A stretch of DNA of 64,000 nt, taken from NCBI GenBank assembly GCA_035936835.1, contig DASYVT010000209.1, positions 11,627-75,626 on the forward strand. Direction: 5' to 3'. Position numbers and translations under genes: made by a program. Below are positions 7,620 to 61,846 of this stretch, piece after piece. The number at the start of each line of letters is the position of its first letter. The first letter of the stretch is position 1. This DNA comes from Candidatus Methylomirabilota bacterium (GTDB taxonomy: Bacteria; Methylomirabilota; Methylomirabilia; Rokubacteriales; CSP1-6). Below the pieces are notes generated by a model that saw only the letters and a program-made list of their open reading frames with translations, made no database searches and was not told the origin of the DNA.

Positions 7620-8537
7620 CTGGCTGCCATCGACCTCGGCACCAACACCGTCCGCCTGCTCATCGTGGAGGCCTCCGGCGCCAAATGGCGCGGGCTGCAC
7701 GCGGAGCAGCGCGTGACGCGGCTGGGAGAGGGGCAGGCGGGGACGGGCATGCTCCAGCCGGCCGCGATGCGGCGGACCGCGGAGGTCGTTGCCGCCTTCT
7801 GCCGTCGGGCGGAAGACCTGGGCGTCCACGATGTGCGCATCGTCGGCACCAGCGCTGTCCGCGAGGCGACCAACGGTGCCGAGTTTCTCGCCCAGGTCCA
7901 TTCGTGGAGTGGCCGGCAGGTGCGGGTGATCTCGGGCGAGGAAGAAGCGCGGCTGACTCTCCTCGGCGTGACTCAAGGGCTGCCCGACCTGAAGGGCCAT
8001 TTCCTTCTCTTCGATATCGGCGGCGGCAGCACCGAGTTCGTGCTTTCGCGCGCAGGGCGCGCGCCTCTGGCCGTGAGCGTAAAACTCGGAGTAGTCGAGC
8101 TCGCCGAGCGCTTCATGGACCAGGGCCCCGTCGATCACACGCGGCACGACGCGATGGCCGCCGAGGTCGGGGCCCGGCTCGCCGCCGGCCTCACCGAGCC
8201 GATCCTCCGCCACGGCGCGCCGACACTCGTGGGCAGCGCGGGCACAGTGACGACGCTGGCGGCCCTCGATCTCAACCTCGAGTCCTACGACGCGGCGCGA
8301 GTGCACGGCCACCGCCTCACGCGCGTGGTGGTGGCGGGGCTCTGCGCGCGCCTCGCGGCCCTCAGCCTGGCCGAGCGCGCCGCCCTGCCGTGCCTCGAGC
8401 CCGGCCGGGCCGACCTGATCGTCCCGGGCTCGGCGATCTGTCTCGCGGCCCTGGACAGGCTCGGCTTCGATGCCCTCATGGTCAGCGACCGGGGTCTCCG
8501 GGAGGGCATCCTGTATGAGATACTGGCTGAGCACTGA
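7620..8537 (+). CDS. ppx: Ppx/GppA-family exopolyphosphatase / pppGpp phosphohydrolase (N-terminal ASKHA domains only, about 300 aa)
   Basis: AAIDLGTNTVRLLIVE and LLFDIGGGSTEF motifs. No ATG/GTG/TTG lies between the upstream stop (7599) and the conserved N-terminus; CTG at 7620 or ATA at 7596 are the only candidates. Confidence 0.75.
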   Translation: MAAIDLGTNTVRLLIVEASGAKWRGLHAEQRVTRLGEGQAGTGMLQPAAMRRTAEVVAAFCRRAEDLGVHDVRIVGTSAVREATNGAEFLAQVHSWSGRQVRVISGEEEARLTLLGVTQGLPDLKGHFLLFDIGGGSTEFVLSRAGRAPLAVSVKLGVVELAERFMDQGPVDHTRHDAMAAEVGARLAAGLTEPILRHGAPTLVGSAGTVTTLAALDLNLESYDAARVHGHRLTRVVVAGLCARLAALSLAERAALPCLEPGRADLIVPGSAICLAALDRLGFDALMVSDRGLREGILYEILAEH

Positions 8538-8545
8538 GAGGGGAC

Positions 8546-9022
8546 ATGGCGAACCGATCGGGGCAGTGGAGGGTCACGGATCTAGCAAACGTGCCGGCAA
8601 ACTGGGGCCCTCGCTCCGCCCGGTGGGCGTGGCTCGAGCTGGTGCTGCCGCTCTTTGCCACGGCGGTCCTCCTGGTCTTCCACAAGCCCCAGTACATGCC
8701 GACGATCTTCGTCGAGAGCGCGACCTCGCCGGTGGCCTGGGTAGCGTGGGCACTCCTGGGCGCCATGGGCGGGGTGTTGGCCTTCTCGGGTCTGCTCGTG
8801 GTTTTCTTCCTTGTCTACTCGCCCGTCTACCTGGCCGGCAAGGCGCCCATGCTGGTGGGCAAGGGCGCCTGGACCGACCGTCGAGAGGTCCGCTTCTACG
8901 GGCTCTGCTTCGTGATTCTCTGCGTGCTGGTGGCGCTCCTCTTGTGGGATTGGCGCTGGTTCGTGTCCGCCTTCCTGCTGCTGACGGGCTTCGCGCCGAC
9001 GTTCTGGCGGGCGCTGGTCTGA
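8546..9022 (+). CDS. hypothetical integral membrane protein (about 4 TM helices)
   Basis: 158-aa ORF with hydrophobic segments and coding-like codon usage. Confidence 0.5.
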   Translation: MANRSGQWRVTDLANVPANWGPRSARWAWLELVLPLFATAVLLVFHKPQYMPTIFVESATSPVAWVAWALLGAMGGVLAFSGLLVVFFLVYSPVYLAGKAPMLVGKGAWTDRREVRFYGLCFVILCVLVALLLWDWRWFVSAFLLLTGFAPTFWRALV

Positions 9023-9609: not shown

Positions 9610-11634
9610 TTGTTCAGGCTGTCCTCGGAGTTCTCGCCCGCGGGGGACCAGCCGCGCGCAATCGAGCGCCTGAGCGAGCTGCTCGCCGAGGGACGCCGGC
9701 ACAGCGTCCTCCTCGGCATCACGGGCAGCGGCAAGACCTTCACGCTCGCCAACGTCATCGCGCAGCTGGGCCGGCCGGCGCTGGTCATCTCTCCGAACAA
9801 GACGCTGGCGGCGCAGCTCTACGGCGAGTTCAAGTCATTTTTCCCCGCCGGCGCCGTCGAGTTCTTCGTCTCCTACTACGACTACTACCAGCCGGAGGCC
9901 TACATCCCGCAGTCGGACACCTACATCGAGAAGGACGCGCTGGTGAACGACGACATCGACCGCATGCGCCACTCGGCGACGACGTCGCTCTTCGAGCGGC
10001 GGGACGTCGTGGTGGTCGCCTCGGTCTCGTGCATCTACGGCATCGGCGCCCCGGAGACCTACCAGGGCATGAATGTTGGACTGGAGGTCGGGCAGGTGAT
10101 CGAGCGCGACGCGCTCATCCGGGGCCTGGTCGCCATCCAGTATGAGCGCAACGACGTCGACTTCCGCAGGGGGACGTTCCGGGTCCGCGGCGACGTCGTG
10201 GAGATCTTCCCGGCAGCCGCGGAGTCGGAGGCCCTCCGCGTCGAGTTGTGGGGAGACACGGTCGAAAAGCTATCGACCCTGGATCCGCTGCGGGGGGTGA
10301 CGACGGGTTCTGCGTCGGTCGCGAGGATCTACCCCGCGAGCCACTACGTCACGCCGGCCGACCAGCTCGAGCGCGCGGTCGCGGGCATCATGGAGGAGCT
10401 GGGCGAGCGGCTGCGGTTCCTCAAGGGGCGCAACCGGCTGCTGGAGGCCCAGCGGCTCGAGCAGCGGACGCTCTTCGACATGGAGATGCTGCGGGAGATC
10501 GGCTACTGCCACGGCATCGAAAACTACTCTCGGCATCTGTCCGGGCGCAGGCCGGGGCAGAGCCCGCCGACCCTGATGGATTACCTTCCCAAGGACGCCC
10601 TCGTCATCATCGACGAATCCCATGTGACGGTGCCGCAGATACGCGGCATGTACCCGGGGGACCGGTCGCGCAAGGAGGCGCTCGTCGAGTACGGCTTCCG
10701 GCTGCCGTCGGCCTTCGACAACCGGCCGCTCAACTTCGACGAGTTCACGGCCATGGTGCCGCAGACGCTCTACGTGTCGGCGACACCGGGGCCGTACGAG
10801 CTCGGACGGGCGGGCGGGCGCCGGGCGGGACCGGGCACGCCGTGGGAGGGCGGGGCCGTGGCCGAGCAGATCATCCGGCCGACCGGGCTCATGGATCCCA
10901 AGATTACCGTGCGCCCGGCGGGCGTCCAGGTCGACGACCTCATGGCGGAGGTGCGCGCCCACGCGGAGGGCGGCGAGCGGGTGCTCATCACGACGCTGAC
11001 GAAGCGCATGGCCGAGGACCTATGCGAGTACTACCAGCAGAACGGGCTCAGGGTGCGGTACCTGCACTCGGACATCGACACGCTGGACCGCGTGGCGGTG
11101 ATCCGCGAGCTGCGAATGGGCAAGTTCGACGCCCTGATCGGCATCAACCTCCTTCGGGAGGGGCTCGATCTGCCCGAGGTCTCGCTCGTGGCGATCCTCG
11201 ACGCCGACAAGGAGGGCTTCTTGCGCTCGGCGACTTCGCTCATCCAGACTGCCGGCAGGGCGGCCCGCCACGTCAACGGCGAGGTGATCATGTACGCGGA
11301 CACGGTGACGGGCTCGATGCGGGAGGCGATCGCCGAGACGGAGAGGCGGAGGGTAGTCCAGGAGGTGTACAACAAGGAGCACGGCATCACGCCTGAGTCC
11401 GTCACGCGCGGAATGAAGGATCTCCTCGACAGCGTGCCGGAGCGCGACTACTACACGGTCGAGGTGCCCAAGGAGACCGAGCCCGTGTGGGAGAGTCCTG
11501 CGGCGCTCCGGGCGCACGTGGCCGAGCTCGAAGGGGCCATGAAGGAGGCCGCTCGGCGCCTCGACTTCGAGCGCGCCGCGGAGCTGCGCGACCGGATCAA
11601 GGCGCTCCGGAAGGCCGAGTTGGGCGTGCGCTGA
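9610..11634 (+). CDS. uvrB: excinuclease ABC subunit B
   Basis: Full-length similarity to UvrB ([21 protein letters not shown]-terminal UVR coiled coil). The start is TTG at 9610 or CTG at 9601, which would give [17 protein letters not shown] matching E. coli MSKPFKLNSAFKPSGDQ. The CTG at 9601 shares 2 nt with the HNH stop codon (9602-9604). Confidence 0.9.
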
Positions 11635-11651
11635 GGGGCGCCCCACCCGCC

Positions 11652-11864
11652 ATGCTCGTCAAGTGGACCCTGGTGTTCTTCGTGGCCCTCTCACTGGGCC
11701 TCGTTGTGCTATCGAAGGTCATTGCGTTCTTCAACCCGCCGCGCGCGGGACGCCCGCGTGCGCCCGTGCTGCGCCGGATCGATCGTATGCTGCGGTGGAC
11801 CGTCCTCGTCCCCGCGGTCCTCGGGCTCGTCGTCCTCGCGGTGACGCTGTGGCTGGCCGCGTAG
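11652..11864 (+). CDS. hypothetical small 2-TM membrane protein (70 aa)
   Basis: ORF between uvrB and uvrC. Its 3' end overlaps the GTG start of uvrC. Confidence 0.3.
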   Translation: MLVKWTLVFFVALSLGLVVLSKVIAFFNPPRAGRPRAPVLRRIDRMLRWTVLVPAVLGLVVLAVTLWLAA

Positions 11865-13705
11865 CGGCGGCCGACTTCGCGGCCAAGCTCGCCCAGCTGC
11901 CCGACCGGCCGGGCGTCTACCTCTACAAGGACGGCAAAGGGCAGATCGTCTACGTCGGCAAGGCCGCCTCGCTCCGAAGTCGCGTACGCTCCTACTTCCA
12001 GGCGTCGCGGGCGCGCGATGCGAAGACGGACGCGCTCGTCGGGCAGATCCGCGATCTCGAGTGCATCGTCACGGGCAACGAGCTCGAGGCGCTCATCCTG
12101 GAGTCCAATCTCGTCAAGAGGCACCGGCCGCGCTACAACATCATCCTCCGTGACGACAAGCACTACCCCTTCCTCAAGCTGACCACCAACGAAGAGTACC
12201 CGCGCCTCGTCGTCGCGCGGCGGGTGCAGCGGGACGGAGCGGCCTACTTCGGGCCCTTCTACCCGGCGACCGCGATGCGGGAGACGCTGAGACTCGTGCG
12301 CCAGCTCTTCCCGCTCCGGACCTGCAGGATCAAGATAGACGGCAAGAAGTCGCGCCCGTGCCTGCAGTACTACATCCACCGCTGCAACGCGCCGTGCACC
12401 AGCCTGGAGACCAAGGAGGGCTACGACCGCACCGTGCGCGAGGTCGAGCGCTTCCTGGCGGGGAAGAACGACGGCCTGGCGCAGGAGCTGACGGCGCAGA
12501 TGGAAGCCGCGGCGGGGGAGGAAAAGTTCGAGCAGGCGGCGCGGCTGCGCGACCGTGTCCAGGCGCTCAACACGGTTCGCGAGCGGCAGAAGATCATCTC
12601 GACCGAGGACAGCGACCAGGACATCGTGGGTGTCGTCCGCCAGGGGCAGGACGCCTGCGTCCAGCTCTTCTTCGTGCGGCGCGGCAGGCTGCTCGGGCGC
12701 GAGTCCTTCTTCTTCGACCGGCTGTCGGGGTCGAGCGAGGGAGAGGTCCTCTCGGCCTTCCTGCGCCAGTTCTACGCGCGCGAGGTCGTGCCGCCGCCGG
12801 AGATCCTCCTCTCGGTGGACGTGCCCGAGGCCGAGCTGACCGGCGAGTGGCTGGCCGGGCGCCGCGGCGGCCGCGTGGAGCTCCTGGCGCCCCAGCGCGG
12901 GAGAAAGCGCGAGCTCGTGGCGATGGCGGAGGAGAACGGCGCGCTGGCGCTCCAGAGCCATCTCCTCTCGCGGGGCAACCGGACGCAGGCGGTGCTGGAC
13001 GAGCTCCAGCGCGCGCTCGGCCTGCCGGAGCCGCCCCACCGCATCGAGGCCTTCGACGTCTCGACCTTCCAGGGCGGGGAGACCGTCGCCTCCATGGTGG
13101 TCTGGCAGGACGGGGACATGAAGAAGGACGACTACAAGCGCTACCGGATCCGGACGGTTACGGGGACCGACGATTTCGCCGCCATGCACGAGGCCGTGAG
13201 CCGGCGCTACGGGCGAGTCCTCGAGACTGATGGTGTCCTCCCCGACCTGATCCTGCTGGATGGCGGGCGGGGCCAGCTGGCAGCGGGGCTGAAGGCGCTG
13301 GAGGCCATCGGTCTCGACTACGTGCCCATGGTGTCGCTGGCCAAGCGGGCGGAGGAGGTCTACACGCCGGACCGGCTCGAGCCGCTCGTGCTGGACCTGA
13401 CATCCCCCGCGCTCCACGCGCTCCAGAGGGTGCGCGACGAGGCCCACCGCTTCGCCGTGACCTACCACAAGAAGCTCCGCACCCGCCGGACCATCAGTTC
13501 GGTGCTGGATCAGATCCCCGGCGTGGGACCCGCGCTCAGGACCAGTCTGCTCAAGACCCTGGGTTCGGCCCGGGCGGTGCGCGGGGCCTCGGTTGCCCAG
13601 CTGGCGGCCGTGCCCAAGGTACGGCCGAAGCTCGCCCAGCGCATCCACGACTTCTTCCACCCGGCGCCTGCAGGGGAGGAACCATCCGGGGCCGAACCGG
13701 GTTAG
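11849..13705 (+). CDS. uvrC: excinuclease ABC subunit C
   Basis: GIY-YIG N-terminus (PGVYLYKDGKGQIVYVGKA), UVR domain, RNase H-like and HhH domains. GTG start at 11849. Confidence 0.9.
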   Translation: MAGRVAAADFAAKLAQLPDRPGVYLYKDGKGQIVYVGKAASLRSRVRSYFQASRARDAKTDALVGQIRDLECIVTGNELEALILESNLVKRHRPRYNIILRDDKHYPFLKLTTNEEYPRLVVARRVQRDGAAYFGPFYPATAMRETLRLVRQLFPLRTCRIKIDGKKSRPCLQYYIHRCNAPCTSLETKEGYDRTVREVERFLAGKNDGLAQELTAQMEAAAGEEKFEQAARLRDRVQALNTVRERQKIISTEDSDQDIVGVVRQGQDACVQLFFVRRGRLLGRESFFFDRLSGSSEGEVLSAFLRQFYAREVVPPPEILLSVDVPEAELTGEWLAGRRGGRVELLAPQRGRKRELVAMAEENGALALQSHLLSRGNRTQAVLDELQRALGLPEPPHRIEAFDVSTFQGGETVASMVVWQDGDMKKDDYKRYRIRTVTGTDDFAAMHEAVSRRYGRVLETDGVLPDLILLDGGRGQLAAGLKALEAIGLDYVPMVSLAKRAEEVYTPDRLEPLVLDLTSPALHALQRVRDEAHRFAVTYHKKLRTRRTISSVLDQIPGVGPALRTSLLKTLGSARAVRGASVAQLAAVPKVRPKLAQRIHDFFHPAPAGEEPSGAEPG

Positions 13706-13738
13706 ACTATGCGACATCTCACGAAGGGGGGTGAATAC

Positions 13739-13990
13739 ATGAAGAAGATTCTGATAGCTCTGGCCCTGGTGTTGGCGACCGCCGGCGCGGCGTTCGCGAA
13801 CCAGTGCCCACTGCTGGTCAAGCAGATCGAGGACGCGACCGCCGGAAAGACCGACGACGCGTCCAAGAAGGCGGTGGCCATGGCCGCCGAGGCCAAGGCG
13901 CTGCACGCCGCCGGCAAGCACGCCGAGTCGGTGCAGAAGGCCAAGGATGCCGCTGCGGAAATCAAGCTGGAGCTGAAAATGAAGCAGTAG
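13739..13990 (+). CDS. small Ala/Lys-rich secreted protein (83 aa, signal peptide)
   Basis: GGGGGTG RBS, MKKILIALALVLATAGAAFA signal peptide. No known domain. Confidence 0.5.
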   Translation: MKKILIALALVLATAGAAFANQCPLLVKQIEDATAGKTDDASKKAVAMAAEAKALHAAGKHAESVQKAKDAAAEIKLELKMKQ

Positions 13991-13996
13991 GGTCTC

Positions 13997-14038
13997 GACC
14001 CCCGGGGGCTGACCGCCCGCCCCCGGGGACCTTTCTTG
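13997..14038 (+). terminator. putative intrinsic terminator: two copies of the self-complementary CCCCCGGGG(G) separated by an 11-nt loop, followed by a T-rich stretch
   Basis: Hairpin plus a T-rich stretch (accTTTCTTg) directly after the small ORF and before leuS. Confidence 0.4.
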
Positions 14039-14075
14039 CGTCCCGCCTGCTAAGTGTGGGAAAATCAGCGCGAAT

Positions 14076-16570
<2,495 letters not shown>

Positions 16571-56546: not shown

Positions 56547-57080
56547 ATGTGGCTCGAGATGAAGGTCAAGGGACTGGCGCTGGACCCTCTCTCCAACATG
56601 CCGATCATCATCCTGCGCGACGAGGAGGAGAAGCGCTCGCTGCCCATCTGGGTCGGGCTCTTCGAGGCCAACGCCATCGCGCTCGAGCTCGAGAAGATCT
56701 CGACGGCGCGGCCCATGACGCACGACCTGATCAAGAACATCCTCGAGGCGCTCGACGCCCGCGTGGTCAAGGTCGAGGTCAACGACCTCCGGGAGAACAC
56801 CTTCTTCGCGGTCATCCACCTCCAGCTGGGATCGGCCGAGATCACCGTCGACTCGCGCCCGTCGGACGCCATCGCGCTCGCGCTCAGGGTGTCGGCCCCG
56901 ATCTTCGTGGACGAGGAAGTCGTGGCCAAGGCCAAGAACGTCGAGGTCGCCAAGGAGCAGGAGCTCGGCGGCAGCAAGACCGACGACCAGGCGAAGATCA
57001 AGGAATGGCTCGATTCCATCAAGCCGGGAGACTTCGGCAAGATCGAGCGCGGCCGTGATCCCAACGCCCCGGATGACTAG
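56547..57080 (+). CDS. bifunctional nuclease (BFN / DUF151) family protein
   Basis: Domain similarity across MWLEMKVKGLALDP...PIWVG...AIALAL. GGGGAGGGG RBS. Confidence 0.75.
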   Translation: MWLEMKVKGLALDPLSNMPIIILRDEEEKRSLPIWVGLFEANAIALELEKISTARPMTHDLIKNILEALDARVVKVEVNDLRENTFFAVIHLQLGSAEITVDSRPSDAIALALRVSAPIFVDEEVVAKAKNVEVAKEQELGGSKTDDQAKIKEWLDSIKPGDFGKIERGRDPNAPDD

Positions 57081-57083
57081 CGG

Positions 57084-58232
57084 ATGCGCGTCGGCCTGTT
57101 CACGAACAACTACCTGCCGTTCCGCGGGGGTGTCACCACCGCGGTAGAGACGCTGCGGCAGGGGCTCGAGGCGCAGGGACATCGGGCCTGGGTCTTCGCG
57201 CCGGCGTCGAGCGCGCCCCACGACGATCCCGCCTTTGTCTTCCGCTACCCCTCGGTGCCCGCGCCGACCTATCCGGGCTTCGCCCTGCCGCTGCCCTTCT
57301 CGAGGCGCTGGAGCCGCGCGGCGCTGGCCCTCGACCTCGACATCTTCCACGCCCAGCATCCGTTCCTCCTCGGCGTGACGGCTCGTCGACTCGCCCGCTG
57401 CCAAGGCCGCCCGCTCGTCTTCACCTACCACACCCGCTACGAGAAGTACGCCCACTACGTGCCGCTCCCGGAACCCCTGGTCGCCTCGCTCGCGGTCAGG
57501 CTCGCCTCCCGCTTCGCCGGCGCAGCAGATCTCGTGATCGCCCCTTCGGCCCGGATCGCCGAGAGCCTCGCGGACCTCGGCGTGCGCGCGCCGATCGCCG
57601 TCGTGCCTACTGGAGTGCCGCTCGATCTCTTCCGTCCGGGCGATCGGGGGGAGGCGAGGCGAGCTCTCGGCCTGGACGAGGACGCGCCGCTGTGCCTCTA
57701 CGTCGGCCGCCTCGATCGCGAGAAGAGCGTGGAGCGCGTGATCGACGCGTTCGGCTCGATCGCCCTGGCCGTGTCGGGGGCGCGGCTTCTTCTCGTGGGG
57801 CAGGGAAGCCACGAGGCGGCCCTCAGGCGCCTCGCCGCGGCAAGCCCTGCGAGCGAAGCCATCTGTTTCGCCGGCTCGGTCGCCCGGGAAGAGCTGCCGC
57901 CGTACTACCAGGCGGCCGACCTCTTCCTCTTCTCCTCCGAGACCGAGACCCAGGGTCTCGTGCTGGCCGAGGCGCACGCCTGCGGGCTGCCCGCCGTCGC
58001 GGTCCGCGCCTCGGGCGTCGACGAGGTCGTGAGGGACGGCGAGACCGGGCTTTTGACGAAGGCCGATACCGAAGAGCTGGCCGACGCGGCCATCGGACTC
58101 CTGCTGGACGCTCCCCGGCGAAGCGCCATGGCGCTCGCCGCGCGTGCTCTCGCGGCGAGCGATTTTTCCGCGTCGCGCCAGGTCGAGGTCATGGCCGGGC
58201 ACTACCTGCGTCTCCTGGGCGGTTTCGCGTGA
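57084..58232 (+). CDS. glycosyltransferase family 4 (GT-B) protein
   Basis: N-terminal Glyco_trans_4 region and C-terminal Glycos_transf_1 region with the E-x7-E motif (ETQGLVLAEA). Confidence 0.8.
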   Translation: MRVGLFTNNYLPFRGGVTTAVETLRQGLEAQGHRAWVFAPASSAPHDDPAFVFRYPSVPAPTYPGFALPLPFSRRWSRAALALDLDIFHAQHPFLLGVTARRLARCQGRPLVFTYHTRYEKYAHYVPLPEPLVASLAVRLASRFAGAADLVIAPSARIAESLADLGVRAPIAVVPTGVPLDLFRPGDRGEARRALGLDEDAPLCLYVGRLDREKSVERVIDAFGSIALAVSGARLLLVGQGSHEAALRRLAAASPASEAICFAGSVAREELPPYYQAADLFLFSSETETQGLVLAEAHACGLPAVAVRASGVDEVVRDGETGLLTKADTEELADAAIGLLLDAPRRSAMALAARALAASDFSASRQVEVMAGHYLRLLGGFA

Positions 58233-58504
58233 GCCCGGCGGGCGTCTCCGGTCGGTGGCTCCGGGCCGCGTTCCAGCCCGCATGGGATCCTGGGGCCGGG
58301 GACGCGGGACGGCGCGGGTTCATGGCGCCCGACCCCCGGGCGCGGACGCTGCTGCGGGTGTTGGTCTCGTACCCGGAGGTGCGCTACGTCCTCCCGGACC
58401 GCGTGGGCCTCACGGCCGGCGCCGACGCCCGCCTGATCGAGACCTTGATGCGCTTCCTGGGGCGCCAGGGATGGCTCATCACGCGCGTGACGTCCTCCGG
58501 TTGA
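58229..58504 (+). CDS. hypothetical small protein (91 aa)
   Basis: GTG-initiated ORF overlapping the GT4 stop. Its stop codon lies in the first copy of the tandem repeat. Weak support. Confidence 0.25.
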   Translation: MSPAGVSGRWLRAAFQPAWDPGAGDAGRRGFMAPDPRARTLLRVLVSYPEVRYVLPDRVGLTAGADARLIETLMRFLGRQGWLITRVTSSG

Positions 58505-58578
58505 GACCCAACCCTTGATCTGGCGCTTGAGACCCAACCCTTGATCTGGCGCTTGAGACTCAGCCCGTGATCTGGAAC
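58501..58578. repeat. 3 x 26-bp tandem direct repeat (TTGAGACCCAACCCTTGATCTGGCGC x2 perfect, third copy 21/26) whose last copy contains the GTG start of the PaaK-like gene
   Basis: Direct reading of the sequence. The unit resembles the 5' end of the downstream gene (GTGATCTGG...GCGCTCGAGAGCC). Confidence 0.9.
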
Positions 58579-59880
58579 CCGGCGCTCGAGAGCCTGCCCC
58601 GCGATTCGATGCGCGCGATGCAGCTCGAGCGTCTCCGCGCGGCGGTGGCGTGGGCGGGCGAGCGCGTGCCGTTCTACCGGAACGCCCTCGCCGAGGCCGG
58701 CGTGGAGCCCTCCACGCTCAAGAGCCTCGAGGACCTCGAGCGGCTGCCCTTCACCCGCAAGGCGCATCTCCGCGAGCACTATCCGTGGGGGCTCTTCGCG
58801 GTGCCGCAGTCCCAGCTCGCGCGGATCCATGCCTCGTCAGGCACCAAGGGCAAGCCGACCGTGGTCGGCTACACGCGAAACGACCTCCTTATTTGGCGAG
58901 AAGTCATGGCCCGCTCCCTCGCGGCGGGGGGCGCCGAGCCCGGCCAGCTCATCCAGATCGCGTACGGCTACGGGCTCTTCACGGGAGGCCTGGGCTTCCA
59001 CGACGGCGCCGAGCACATGGGCTTGACCGTCGTGCCCGTGTCCTCGGGGAATACGCTCCGGCAGATCCTGCTGCTTCAGGATTTTCGGCCCCAGGGCCTG
59101 GCCTGCACGCCGTCATTCGCGCTCCACATCGGCGAGACGATGCGCGAGCAGGGGATAGACCCGCGGAGCGTCGGCCTCCGGTACGGGCTCCTCGGCGCCG
59201 AGCCCTGGACGGAAGGCCTGCGGCGACAGATCGAGGCGCTGTGGGGTATCCACGCGGTCGACTTCTACGGGCTCAGCGAGATCATCGGGCCCGGCGTCGC
59301 GACGGAGTGTGCCGAGGGGCGGGACGGCCTCCACGTCAACGAGGACCACTTCCTGCCCGAGGTGGTGGACCCGGGGACGGGCGAGCCGCTGCCGGCGGGC
59401 ACGGAGGGCGAGCTCGTCCTGACCTGTCTCACCAAGCGGGCGCTGCCCATCCTCCGGTACAGGACGGGCGACGTGACGCGCCTCGATTTCGAGCCGTGCC
59501 GCTGCGGCAGGACCACGGTGCGGATGGCACGCATCAAGGGCCGCACCGACGACATGCTGGTGATCAAGGGCGTCAACGTGTACCCCTCCCAGCTCGAGGC
59601 GGCGCTGTTGACCTTGCCGGACCTGGCACCGCACTATCAGCTCGTGGTGGACCGCGGCAAAGGCTTCCCGACCATCGAGGTGCACGTCGAGCCCTCCGAA
59701 GAGCGCGTGCGCGCATGGGGCGGCTTCGACTCGGCGCGGCCGGAGGTCGTCGCGCTGTCGCTGCGGGTAGGGGAGCTGCTCCGTGCCCACCTGGGCCTCA
59801 ACCCCGAAGTCGCCATCGTACCGCCCAAGACCATTCCCCGCAGCGAGGGGAAGGCGGTGCGGGTCGTGGAAAGGAGCTGA
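58567..59880 (+). CDS. paaK: phenylacetate-CoA ligase family (PaaK / coenzyme F390 synthetase / CapK-like) adenylate-forming enzyme
   Basis: SSGTKGKPT AMP-binding motif, YGLSE, GD motif, about 435 aa. Confidence 0.8.
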   Translation: MIWNPALESLPRDSMRAMQLERLRAAVAWAGERVPFYRNALAEAGVEPSTLKSLEDLERLPFTRKAHLREHYPWGLFAVPQSQLARIHASSGTKGKPTVVGYTRNDLLIWREVMARSLAAGGAEPGQLIQIAYGYGLFTGGLGFHDGAEHMGLTVVPVSSGNTLRQILLLQDFRPQGLACTPSFALHIGETMREQGIDPRSVGLRYGLLGAEPWTEGLRRQIEALWGIHAVDFYGLSEIIGPGVATECAEGRDGLHVNEDHFLPEVVDPGTGEPLPAGTEGELVLTCLTKRALPILRYRTGDVTRLDFEPCRCGRTTVRMARIKGRTDDMLVIKGVNVYPSQLEAALLTLPDLAPHYQLVVDRGKGFPTIEVHVEPSEERVRAWGGFDSARPEVVALSLRVGELLRAHLGLNPEVAIVPPKTIPRSEGKAVRVVERS

Positions 59881-59882
59881 CC

Positions 59883-60713
59883 ATGAGCCAGCGCGTCACG
59901 GAAGCGGAGCTCCTCGCGCGGATCGAGCGCGGCGAGCGCATCGAGTCGACCGAGGAGATGACGGAGGAGTACCGGCAGAGCTTGGTGCACCTCATGACCA
60001 TGCAGGCCGACTCCGAGCTCGCGGGCGGCTACGGCTACGTGCCGTGGATCATGAAGGCTCCCGGCGTCGAGGAGAAGCACGTCGTCGCGCAGATCGTCAA
60101 GGACGAGCACCGGCACGCCGCCGTCATGTACGGGCTCCTCGCCGACCTTGGAGTGGACGTGGACGCCCACGTGCGGGCCCACGACGAAGCCTTCGCCATG
60201 CGCATCGACGCGTCGGCCGATGACATCGGCACCGCTCGGATCGGCGCCGACAAGCGCGTGAACATCTTCTACTACCCGATCGACACGTGGGCCGACTTCA
60301 TCTTCTTCAACTTCTGCATGGACAGAGGGGCGGGTCACCAGCTGGAAGACGTGCGGCAGTGTTCCTACGGCCCGTGGGCGCGAGCCATCGAGGGCATCTT
60401 CAAGGAGGAGAAGTTCCACATCCGCCACGGCGAGTATTGGGTCACGAAGCTCGGCGGGGACCCCGCCACGCGGGGTGAGGCGCAGGCGACGCTCAACAAG
60501 TGGTTCATCCGCACGATGAACATCTTCGGCCGGCCCGGCTCGCCCAAAAACGCCCTCTACCGGAAGTACAAACTCAAGGTCCGGGACAACGATGAGGTCC
60601 GCCAGGCCTTCGCGGCCGAGGTCAAGGAGAAGGCTTTAGCAGTGGGCCTCACGCTGCCCGAGTGGATTCCGGTCTGGGACCGGCTGCCCGAAGAGGCCCA
60701 GATCCCAGGCTAG
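59883..60713 (+). CDS. PaaA/PaaC-family ferritin-like diiron protein (1,2-phenylacetyl-CoA epoxidase subunit A-like)
   Basis: Alignable to PaaA through YRQSLVHLMTMQADSELAGG...KDEHRHAAVMY...FFNFCMDRGAGHQLEDVRQCSYGPWARAIEGIFKEEKFHIRHGE. Confidence 0.7.
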   Translation: MSQRVTEAELLARIERGERIESTEEMTEEYRQSLVHLMTMQADSELAGGYGYVPWIMKAPGVEEKHVVAQIVKDEHRHAAVMYGLLADLGVDVDAHVRAHDEAFAMRIDASADDIGTARIGADKRVNIFYYPIDTWADFIFFNFCMDRGAGHQLEDVRQCSYGPWARAIEGIFKEEKFHIRHGEYWVTKLGGDPATRGEAQATLNKWFIRTMNIFGRPGSPKNALYRKYKLKVRDNDEVRQAFAAEVKEKALAVGLTLPEWIPVWDRLPEEAQIPG

Positions 60714-60718
60714 CTGCC

Positions 60719-61384
60719 ATGCCCCGCGTCGCGGCCTTACTCCTCGCCACGAGTCTTCTGGCATGCGCCGTTCCTGGCGAGTGCCAGACGGGCCGCCAGG
60801 TCAAGGTTGTCCTCGAGTTCCAGCAGCAGGGGCAGGACAGCCGCCAGGGCGTCCAGGGCCGTGTGAGCGGGGTCATCATCCAAGATGGTACGACACGCGG
60901 GCAGGACGGCAAGGCGCGAGGCCGCGGCGGTGTCGCGGTTCAGGACACGACGACGCGGACCATCCGGAGCGAGGGCATCTTCACGATCGTCCAGGACGGC
61001 GGCACGGCGAGCATGCTGGTGGCGAGCGAGGTGCCGGTCACCGTGGTCGGGTGGTTCCGCGACTACGCGGCGGGGCAGGGGTACGCGGCGCAGGGGATGG
61101 CCTGGCAGCGCGTCGGCACCACCCTCGTCGTGAGCCCGACCATCCTGCCCAACGGGCAGATCCGCGTCCGGCTCATTCCACAAGTAAGCTACTTCTCGCC
61201 CCAGGGCGACGGCAGCATCGAGTTCAACGAGGCCGCGACCGAGGTGATCGTGCCCAACGGTCGCGCGATGCGGATCGGCGGCGCCACCCGCGGCATCAAC
61301 CAGGTGACGCGCCAGATCCTCGGCTACCGCGAGCAGCAGTCCTCGAGCGAGTCGAGCTTCATCCTCACCGCCACCGTCCAGTGA
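60719..61384 (+). CDS. small lipoprotein whose C-terminal region resembles a secretin beta-domain
   Basis: Lipobox LLACAV. LVVSPTILPNGQIRVRLIPQVS...EVIVPNGRAMRIGG follows the secretin pattern L-x-V-x-P-x-I-x-x-G-x-I-x-L-x-I-x-x-x-V-S ... GG. Confidence 0.45.
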   Translation: MPRVAALLLATSLLACAVPGECQTGRQVKVVLEFQQQGQDSRQGVQGRVSGVIIQDGTTRGQDGKARGRGGVAVQDTTTRTIRSEGIFTIVQDGGTASMLVASEVPVTVVGWFRDYAAGQGYAAQGMAWQRVGTTLVVSPTILPNGQIRVRLIPQVSYFSPQGDGSIEFNEAATEVIVPNGRAMRIGGATRGINQVTRQILGYREQQSSSESSFILTATVQ

Positions 61385-61846
61385 CCTCGTCCCCCCCAGT
61401 GAGCTCCTCAGCCGACGATTCCTCCGTTCCGGCGGAGCTCAAGGCCCGAATCGAGGGCCGACCCCTGGACCCGGGCGCTCGGCATACAGTTCCTCGCCCT
61501 GGGGCGTGGCTTCTGCCGGCTGGGGCTGACCGTCCAGCCCCACATGGTCAACTTCCAGGGCTATCCCCACGGCGGGGTCATCTTCTCCCTGGCGGACATC
61601 GCCTTCGGCGCGGCCTGCAACTCCCACGGCGGGACCGCGGTGGCGCTCAACATGACCATCAGCTTCCTGACTGCCGTCCAGGCCGGCTCGCGGCTCGTAG
61701 CGGACGCGCGGGAGATCAAGCAGGGCAGACGGGCAGGCTTCTACCAGGTGAGCGTGACGAGTGAGAAGGGGGCGCTGGTAGCGCAGGTCCACTGCGTGGC
61801 GCATATGGTGCCGGTGCTGGGGGGGTGCCCGCCGAAGAGTGATTGA
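61381..61846 (+). pseudogene. paaI: PaaI-like hotdog-fold acyl-CoA thioesterase interrupted by a +1 frameshift near a poly-C tract (about 61461-61470)
   Basis: The conserved DPWTRALGIQFLALG...HGGVIFSLADIAFGAACNS is in frame 2, which has no ATG/GTG/TTG after its upstream stop at 61400-61402. The only plausible N-terminus (GTG at 61381 or 61399) is in frame 1. Confidence 0.55.

Follow-up and report, generated by a model that had tools for sequence, protein, structure and literature searches.

Phenylacetyl-CoA epoxidase is considered to work only as a multicomponent enzyme. The question raised by the locus described here is what a PaaA-like diiron protein does when it is encoded by itself, without PaaB, PaaC, PaaD or PaaE. 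The locus lies in a stretch of 64,000 nucleotides from a Candidatus Methylomirabilota bacterium (assembly GCA_035936835.1, contig DASYVT010000209.1, positions 11,627 to 75,626), hereafter the window, which has a G+C content of about 70% and whose proteins have their closest homologues in metagenome-assembled genomes (MAGs) of Methylomirabilota/Rokubacteria. Four genes on the + strand occupy positions 58567-61846, and encode in order a PaaK-type ligase, the PaaA-like protein, a protein with a secretin-type domain, and a PaaI-type thioesterase, separated by 2 nt and 5 nt at the first two junctions and overlapping by 4 nt at the third. An earlier reading of the letters alone (the original prediction) had placed these open reading frames (ORFs) correctly, profile searches with each protein matched the families in question (PF00501/PF14535, PF05138, PF00263 and PF03061), and we agree with that reading that the arrangement differs from a textbook paa operon. 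From the sequence comparisons set out below, we lean towards the view that the core of the locus is a smaller unit, namely a two-gene module in which paaK is paired with a putative stand-alone PaaA-type phenylacetyl-CoA oxygenase that would work with PaaK.

The PaaA-like gene (59883-60713, + strand) starts 2 nt past the paaK stop codon, and encodes a diiron carboxylate protein of 276 aa that matches PF05138 with 144 bits (E 5.5e-42). The original prediction had named a lack of the six diiron ligands as grounds for its own refutation, and all six are found: E45, E75, H78, D147, E176 and H179 align with E42, E72, H75, D126, E155 and H158, the iron ligands of E. coli PaaA (PMC4498308). Phe108, the residue that orients the phenyl ring in PaaA, is kept as F129. 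An AlphaFold2 (AF2) model has a mean pLDDT of 87, with only residues 112-124 modelled poorly, and its best match in the PDB is PaaA (3pw8_C, TM score 0.78), followed in order by SSO1313 (4MUD), PaaC, BoxB, and aldehyde-deformylating oxygenase. A MiaE-like tRNA hydroxylase was also considered, a miaB gene being nearby, and was rejected, as the protein has no match to the MiaE families and MiaE is absent among the Foldseek matches.

Of the cluster representatives at 50% identity, no more than 41 match the PaaA-like protein at E <= 1e-30. A comparison of 106 full-length PF05138 representatives places 54 of them nearer to the PaaA-like protein than to E. coli PaaA, all with the full ligand set, and nearly all of the 54 lack the 'lysine bridge' of PaaA, a Lys68/Glu49 pair that adjoins the diiron site and for which a role in electron transfer has been proposed. 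On these grounds the window protein is assigned, by sequence, to a large branch of short PF05138 proteins, separate from both canonical PaaA and PaaC.

The context in which members of this branch are found in other lineages bears on their function. Three relatives, from unrelated lineages and at loci with a G+C content of 45-54%, are 59.6% (L086), 59.9% (L091) and 62.2% (L092, an Elusimicrobiota MAG) identical to the window protein and, like it, have all six ligands, a short C-terminus and no lysine bridge. In each case the lone PaaA-like gene is placed between genes for PaaG (43-48% identical to the E. coli protein) and PaaH (40-51%), in an operon that also holds PaaF (44-47%) and PaaJ (52-59%). 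Two of the three operons include an aldehyde dehydrogenase, and that of L086 adds a MenB/BadI-type crotonase. Each operon has one PF05138 gene, with no PaaB, PaaC, PaaD or PaaE and no family 4 glycosyltransferase (GT4) of the kind found upstream of the cluster in the window. Judged by gene content, the rest of a phenylacetate-type pathway is complete in these operons, and the lone protein takes the position of the oxygenase. The original prediction left the substrate as an unknown acyl-CoA; with a PaaK-clade ligase next door, and relatives of the PaaA-like protein at 59-63% identity inside paa operons, the substrate is probably not unknown.

Two further observations from these comparisons were set aside. 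A protein of 209-220 aa encoded in the three operons was considered as a partner subunit and rejected, being a membrane protein or unrelated, and absent from the window and from the Rokubacteria loci. In L086 (11682-12323) and L091 (10019-10681) it is a polytopic membrane protein of 213-220 aa that has no family match and is conserved after PaaJ, and the protein of this size class in L092 is unrelated to these two. A lone PaaA-like protein of the Sulfuritalea type (L089, 35% identical) was dropped as support, since it has K and G at two of the ligand positions. Its gene (8001-8795) is the sole PaaA/PaaC-family gene in a paa cluster, with PaaY, an aldehyde dehydrogenase and a flavodoxin on one side and PaaG, PaaI and PaaJ on the other.

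The ligase gene (58567-59880, + strand) encodes a paaK-like, aryl-acetate (probably phenylacetate)-CoA ligase of 437 aa, with an ANL-type N-terminal domain and an AMP-binding_C_2 domain (PF00501 and PF14535, E 1e-20). Over 430 aa the protein shares 47% identity with E. coli PaaK, and it scores 544.1 bits on the PaaK model TIGR02155, under the equivalog cut-off of 646.3 bits but far above its score with every other family (191 bits for the next unrelated one, and 142-191 bits for F390-synthetase or CapK-like relatives). Its translation contains the P-loop SSGTKGKP, YRTGD and RTDDM, and the corresponding motifs of PAL enzymes are SSGTxG, Y(R/K)TGD and R(S/T)DDM (PMC13186573). By these sequence criteria the ligase is taken to be a true member of the PaaK clade.

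Partner subunits were sought by tblastn with E. coli PaaB, PaaC, PaaD, PaaE, PaaF, PaaG, PaaH and PaaJ (from NC_000913) in the 64-kb window and in about 20 kb (10-kb flanks) around each relative. Relatives were taken from a search in which each GTDB species was represented by a single genome; it found 215, of which the best 80 were analysed; their PaaA-like proteins are 75-92% identical to that of the window, and all have Methylomirabilota-type synteny. In the window, the eight queries gave only short noise matches (E up to 5), and within 10 kb of the PaaA-like gene PaaB to PaaH or PaaJ was found in 0 of the 80 related loci. The Pfam tables of six related Methylomirabilota loci likewise hold no PF06243, no second PF05138, no PaaE-type domains, and none of PaaF to PaaJ. 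Thus the PaaA-like protein stands alone, as originally proposed, with no PaaB, PaaC, PaaD or PaaE in the window or within 10 kb of its 80 relatives. The other ground for refutation named by the original prediction, partner homologues just outside the window, likewise found no support in these searches.

The four-gene arrangement, however, is not a conserved unit. Counting loci with enough flanking sequence (65, 70 or 74, depending on the feature), an intact paaK lies immediately upstream of the PaaA-like gene in 63 of 74, a partial paaK in 1 of 74, and none in 10 of 74. The secretin-domain gene follows the PaaA-like gene in 26 of 70 loci, a thioesterase is nearby in 12 of 70, and all four genes occur together in only 12 of 65, so that just the pair of paaK and the PaaA-like gene is conserved. 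The median identity to the window protein is 79% for the PaaA-like protein, 77% for AccA, 75% for BFN, 71% for MiaB, 64% for both GT4 and PaaK, and 55% for the secretin-domain protein. In the closest relative (L090, GCA_030647435.1), the PaaA-like protein is 97.5% identical, and an in-frame deletion of about 1.2 kb (at 9010-9162 in L090, equivalent to 58524-59740 of the window), which starts beside a tandem repeat, has removed paaK codons 6 to about 393. The locus counts, together with the L090 deletion, therefore mark the PaaA-like gene as the constant element, usually paired with paaK, with the other two genes being lineage-specific accessories.

If the two-gene module operates as we propose, PaaK would convert phenylacetate, or an aryl-acetate much like it, into the activated CoA thioester, and the PaaA-like protein would oxygenate the ring of the thioester, most likely by 1,2-epoxidation. 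We infer that this oxygenation would proceed without PaaB, PaaC, PaaD or PaaE, with electrons supplied by a general donor of the ferredoxin or flavodoxin type, as can be compared with BoxB. The secretin-domain protein, which is secreted, may help the substrate to cross the outer membrane, and the PaaI-type thioesterase would represent a safety valve that releases CoA from excess thioester, one that would be inactivated in this strain. Genes for further processing of the ring are absent from the locus. The activate, oxidise and release scheme of the original prediction is right as to the families of ligase, oxygenase and thioesterase, but in this strain the gene of the releasing enzyme is frameshifted, and in L090 that of the activating enzyme is deleted. 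A broader form of the proposal, which we put forward only tentatively, is that a single-polypeptide, probably homo-oligomeric, PaaA-type aryl-CoA epoxidase has replaced the five-component enzyme in several phyla, and is near-universal in Rokubacteria, where it would be conserved like core genes.

Known systems offer partial precedents. The PaaABCDE enzymes of E. coli and Pseudomonas (3PW1, 4IIT) share with the window protein the PF05138 family, the ferritin-like fold (TM score 0.78 to PaaA), the identical six ligands, and Phe108; the genomic company is also alike, with PaaK and PaaI-type genes adjoining the PaaA-like gene here, and PaaF, PaaG, PaaH and PaaJ beside its close relatives. In contrast to these enzymes, the PaaA-like protein is the product of a single gene without PaaB, PaaC, PaaD or PaaE, and is 29% identical to PaaA, with a sub-cut-off score. 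SSO1313 of Sulfolobus solfataricus (4MUD), a short stand-alone PF05138 protein of ferritin fold that was solved by structural genomics and is annotated as 'phenylacetic acid degradation-like', is the second structural match (TM score 0.70 when normalised by the query and 0.86 by the target, sequence E 2e-17), but is only 23-24% identical. A functional precedent for a single-subunit aryl-CoA epoxidase is BoxB, the benzoyl-CoA 2,3-epoxidase, a diiron enzyme that needs no structural subunit and receives electrons from a separately encoded reductase (PMC4498308). BoxB differs in its size of about 475 aa, in being 21% identical, and in having a dedicated reductase, BoxA, encoded nearby; the BoxB profile gives the PaaA-like protein 33 bits against a cut-off of 499.

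Several observations weigh against a self-sufficient PaaA-type oxygenase that works with PaaK. On TIGR02156, the equivalog model of PaaA, the protein scores 138.6 bits and the cut-off is 280. The lysine bridge is absent, with Ile71 and Tyr52 at the aligned positions here and in the lone-type relatives examined, as is the C-terminal extension of about 55 aa present in PaaA, and an insertion of about 25 aa between helices (approximately residues 95-125) is poorly modelled. E. coli PaaA is insoluble alone and requires PaaC (PMC4498308). No reductase gene is seen near the PaaA-like gene, and no ring-processing genes are seen within 10 kb of any Rokubacteria locus; these searches, like those for the partners, cover 64 kb here and about 20 kb per relative. 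Finally, loci without paaK (10 of 74), and L090 with its paaK deletion, still carry the PaaA-like gene at 75-97% identity, and the function of that gene would therefore be independent of the adjacent ligase.

The last of these points, and the lack of downstream paa genes close by, could also be read as signs that the PaaA-like protein is a diiron enzyme of the Rokubacteria core, has a role outside phenylacetate catabolism, and acts on another substrate, such as an acyl or aryl group of the envelope, a glycolipid or a cofactor, in association with GT4 and with a small ORF that precedes paaK. Consistent with this, all genes from DnaE to the thioesterase run in one direction; from GT4 through the small ORF and paaK to the PaaA-like gene, neighbours overlap or have almost no space between them; the deep branches L087, L088 and L093 keep the order GT4, small ORF, (PaaK), PaaA-like, at 68-77% identity; and the PaaA-like protein, at a median of 79%, is no less conserved than AccA (77%) and MiaB (71%). 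Yet conserved order inside one phylum can be mere inheritance, and canonical PaaA is also highly conserved, such that conservation alone is no sign of a housekeeping role. In other phyla, the paa operons that harbour the relatives of about 60% identity lack GT4. The CapK-like polysaccharide or lipid modification system suggested by the original prediction, which would be one version of such a role, is favoured only by the synteny with GT4, and the ligase, at 544 bits with PaaK against 142-191 bits with F390-synthetase/CapK-like families, argues against it. We regard a core function of this kind as unlikely.

A genuine PaaA-type catalytic subunit whose partners (PaaC-like, PaaB-like and a reductase) are encoded elsewhere and act in trans would be in keeping with the insolubility of E. 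coli PaaA without PaaC, and with the need of the E. coli reaction for PaaB, PaaC and PaaE (PMC4498308). The stretches covered by the searches leave room for such genes, and a second PaaK-like gene 10 kb off in L004 suggests that paa-type genes can be scattered. We nonetheless judge partners in trans to be improbable: the three paa operons hold every other step of the pathway with no partner subunits, the PaaA-like protein lacks the C-terminal extension and lysine bridge of PaaA, short PF05138 proteins with full ligands are common (the 54 of 106 representatives), and BoxB, a structural relative, needs no structural subunit. As for the cluster being a decaying remnant without current function in this strain, the frameshifted thioesterase, the paaK deletion in L090, and tandem duplications that disturb the start region of paaK are all suggestive of decay. 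However, paaK and the PaaA-like gene are both intact here, and the 97.5% identity of the PaaA-like protein in L090, its 75-92% identity across 80 species, and its retained ligands indicate purifying selection, making a remnant very improbable.

The preferred reading, a PaaA-type oxygenase that acts without the other four components, would have consequences beyond this locus. That relatives of the PaaA-like protein seem to replace the whole complex in the operons of other phyla suggests a simplified version of the enzyme that has not been described. Literature searches on stand-alone PaaA-like oxygenases, Rokubacteria with phenylacetate, the function of SSO1313, and Sulfuritalea PaaA returned nothing relevant, and a survey from 2026 still uses PaaA and PaaC together as pathway markers. 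If the reading is correct, surveys that require PaaABCDE undercount the potential for phenylacetate and aromatic degradation in soil phyla such as Rokubacteria and Elusimicrobiota. A much simpler enzyme would also become available for the study or engineering of ring epoxidation of aromatic CoA thioesters, and the large uncharacterised branch of PF05138 would gain its first function, with a hint at an ancestral form of the enzyme before the duplication that gave PaaA and PaaC.

The third gene of the cluster (60719-61384, + strand) encodes a secreted protein of 221 aa with a signal peptide and a secretin-type domain (PF00263, 41.5 bits against a gathering threshold of 27.5), in which residues 90-197 align with profile positions 17-130 of 169. 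With the GspD and PilQ models the protein scores 18-21 bits, against cut-offs of 284-351, and a sequence search of the PDB gave matches to PilQ only, which were insignificant; the AF2 model has a pLDDT of 50.6. Secretins such as GspD, PilQ, CpaC and InvG have the C-terminal secretin domain in common with the window protein, but are several hundred residues long with periplasmic N domains, whereas the window protein, with 221 aa, has none of these domains, and its gene has no neighbours with secretion or pilus functions. Close homologues number in the hundreds in soil metagenomes (766 at E <= 1e-3). The 'lipoprotein' label of the original prediction is doubtful by sequence comparison, as, outside the closest sequences, orthologues have S, F or G in place of the cysteine of the 'LLAC' motif and retain an AxA-type site for signal peptidase I. 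A parallel for an envelope protein in this position exists in the paa clusters of Pseudomonas, where an outer-membrane channel (the porin PhaK/PaaM) and an uptake permease (PhaJ/PaaL) are encoded (PMC3224230). Envelope or transport genes here fill the slot after the oxygenase gene in a similar manner, but PhaK/PaaM has the OprD-type porin fold, and the protein with the secretin-type domain has no sequence relationship to either the porin or the permease.

The composition of this slot varies among the related loci. In L027 (11566-16200), L028 (7583-12200) and L045 (about 11591-16100), a five-gene Liv-type ABC transporter, consisting of a binding protein, two permeases and two ATPases, separates the secretin-domain gene from the thioesterase. 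One clade has no secretin-domain gene, and there an outer-membrane-type protein of the Phenol_MetA_deg family (PF13557) follows the PaaA-like gene (L041, 10851-11546; L049, 10836-11540). Both the Liv-type transporter and the Phenol_MetA_deg protein fit a role in the uptake of aromatic acids. In six other loci, L062, L077, L078, L080, L083 (11097-11306) and L087 (8883-9356), short AhpC/TSA (peroxiredoxin) fragments stand directly after the PaaA-like gene, and may represent a degraded or miscalled peroxiredoxin gene.

The last gene of the cluster (61381-61846, + strand) is a frameshifted gene for a PaaI-type hotdog thioesterase (PF03061, E 2e-17), whose GTG start codon at 61381 overlaps the stop codon of the secretin-domain gene. 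The protein is 41% identical to E. coli PaaI, contains the HGG ... LAD catalytic region (PHGGVIFSLADIAF), and scores 108 bits on TIGR02286, the PaaI model, under the cut-off of 119; the intact thioesterase of L090 (146 aa) has a similar score of 105 bits. The hotdog family had been recognised correctly in the original prediction, but the reading frame is broken by a 1-nt insertion: the N-terminal 25 codons are in a different frame, and the last 100 codons form the residual ORF at 61544-61846. A DNA alignment with five intact orthologues, which read through in a single frame, places the extra base near 61457. The frameshift is probably a real mutation rather than an assembly error, because two independent Logan assemblies carry the frameshifted sequence at 99.9-100% identity. 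A different disruption of the same thioesterase gene is found in L009.

Upstream of the cluster, the genes for DnaE, AccA, MiaB, BFN and GT4 run in the same direction through to the thioesterase, with gaps of no more than 62 nt, and on the 3' side lie convergent genes for TPR_21, bactofilin and Tag. The BFN gene (56547-57080) and the GT4 gene (57084-58232, + strand) are situated as originally described. The GT4 protein, which is of interest here as context only, matches PF00534 and PF13439 (E 1e-34 to 1e-36), with MGlcDAG synthase as its best NCBIfam match (170 bits, under the cut-off of 400), and is found upstream of the PaaA-like gene in 71 of 74 related loci. An Rfam scan for regulatory RNA gave no matches, a promoter scan found no sigma-70-like sites, and terminator-like sites were no more frequent than by chance.

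The cluster had been described as following GT4. The order is right, and the interval of 335 nt after GT4 is occupied by a conserved ORF of 91 aa and then by a 26-nt tandem repeat. The small ORF (58229-58504, + strand) starts with a GTG codon that overlaps the stop codon of GT4, creating the arrangement GTGA, and has a G+C content at third codon positions (GC3) of 0.92, as is typical of coding sequence. It has no Pfam or NCBIfam matches. Homologues of 70-91 aa occur at the same position in L003, L087, L088, L090 and L093 (40-98% identity), and tblastn finds the ORF in 48 of 74 loci. A PaaB analogue was considered and ruled out, given an hhalign probability of 0.5% and the absence of matches in both family databases.

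The repeat (58501-58575, + strand) consists of 2.9 copies of the 26-nt unit TTGAGACCCAACCCTTGATCTGGCGC (TRF score 129), and reaches from the small-ORF stop codon as far as the GTG that begins paaK, with this start codon borne by the third, diverged copy. Two of the copies are exact, where 0 would be expected by chance, and there is only one copy in L090, the closest relative. Short duplications of this junction or start codon have arisen independently in L006 (15 nt x 2.8), L017 (17 nt x 2.2) and L022 (17 nt x 2.0), and such recurrent duplications may represent a repeated way to alter the translation of paaK.

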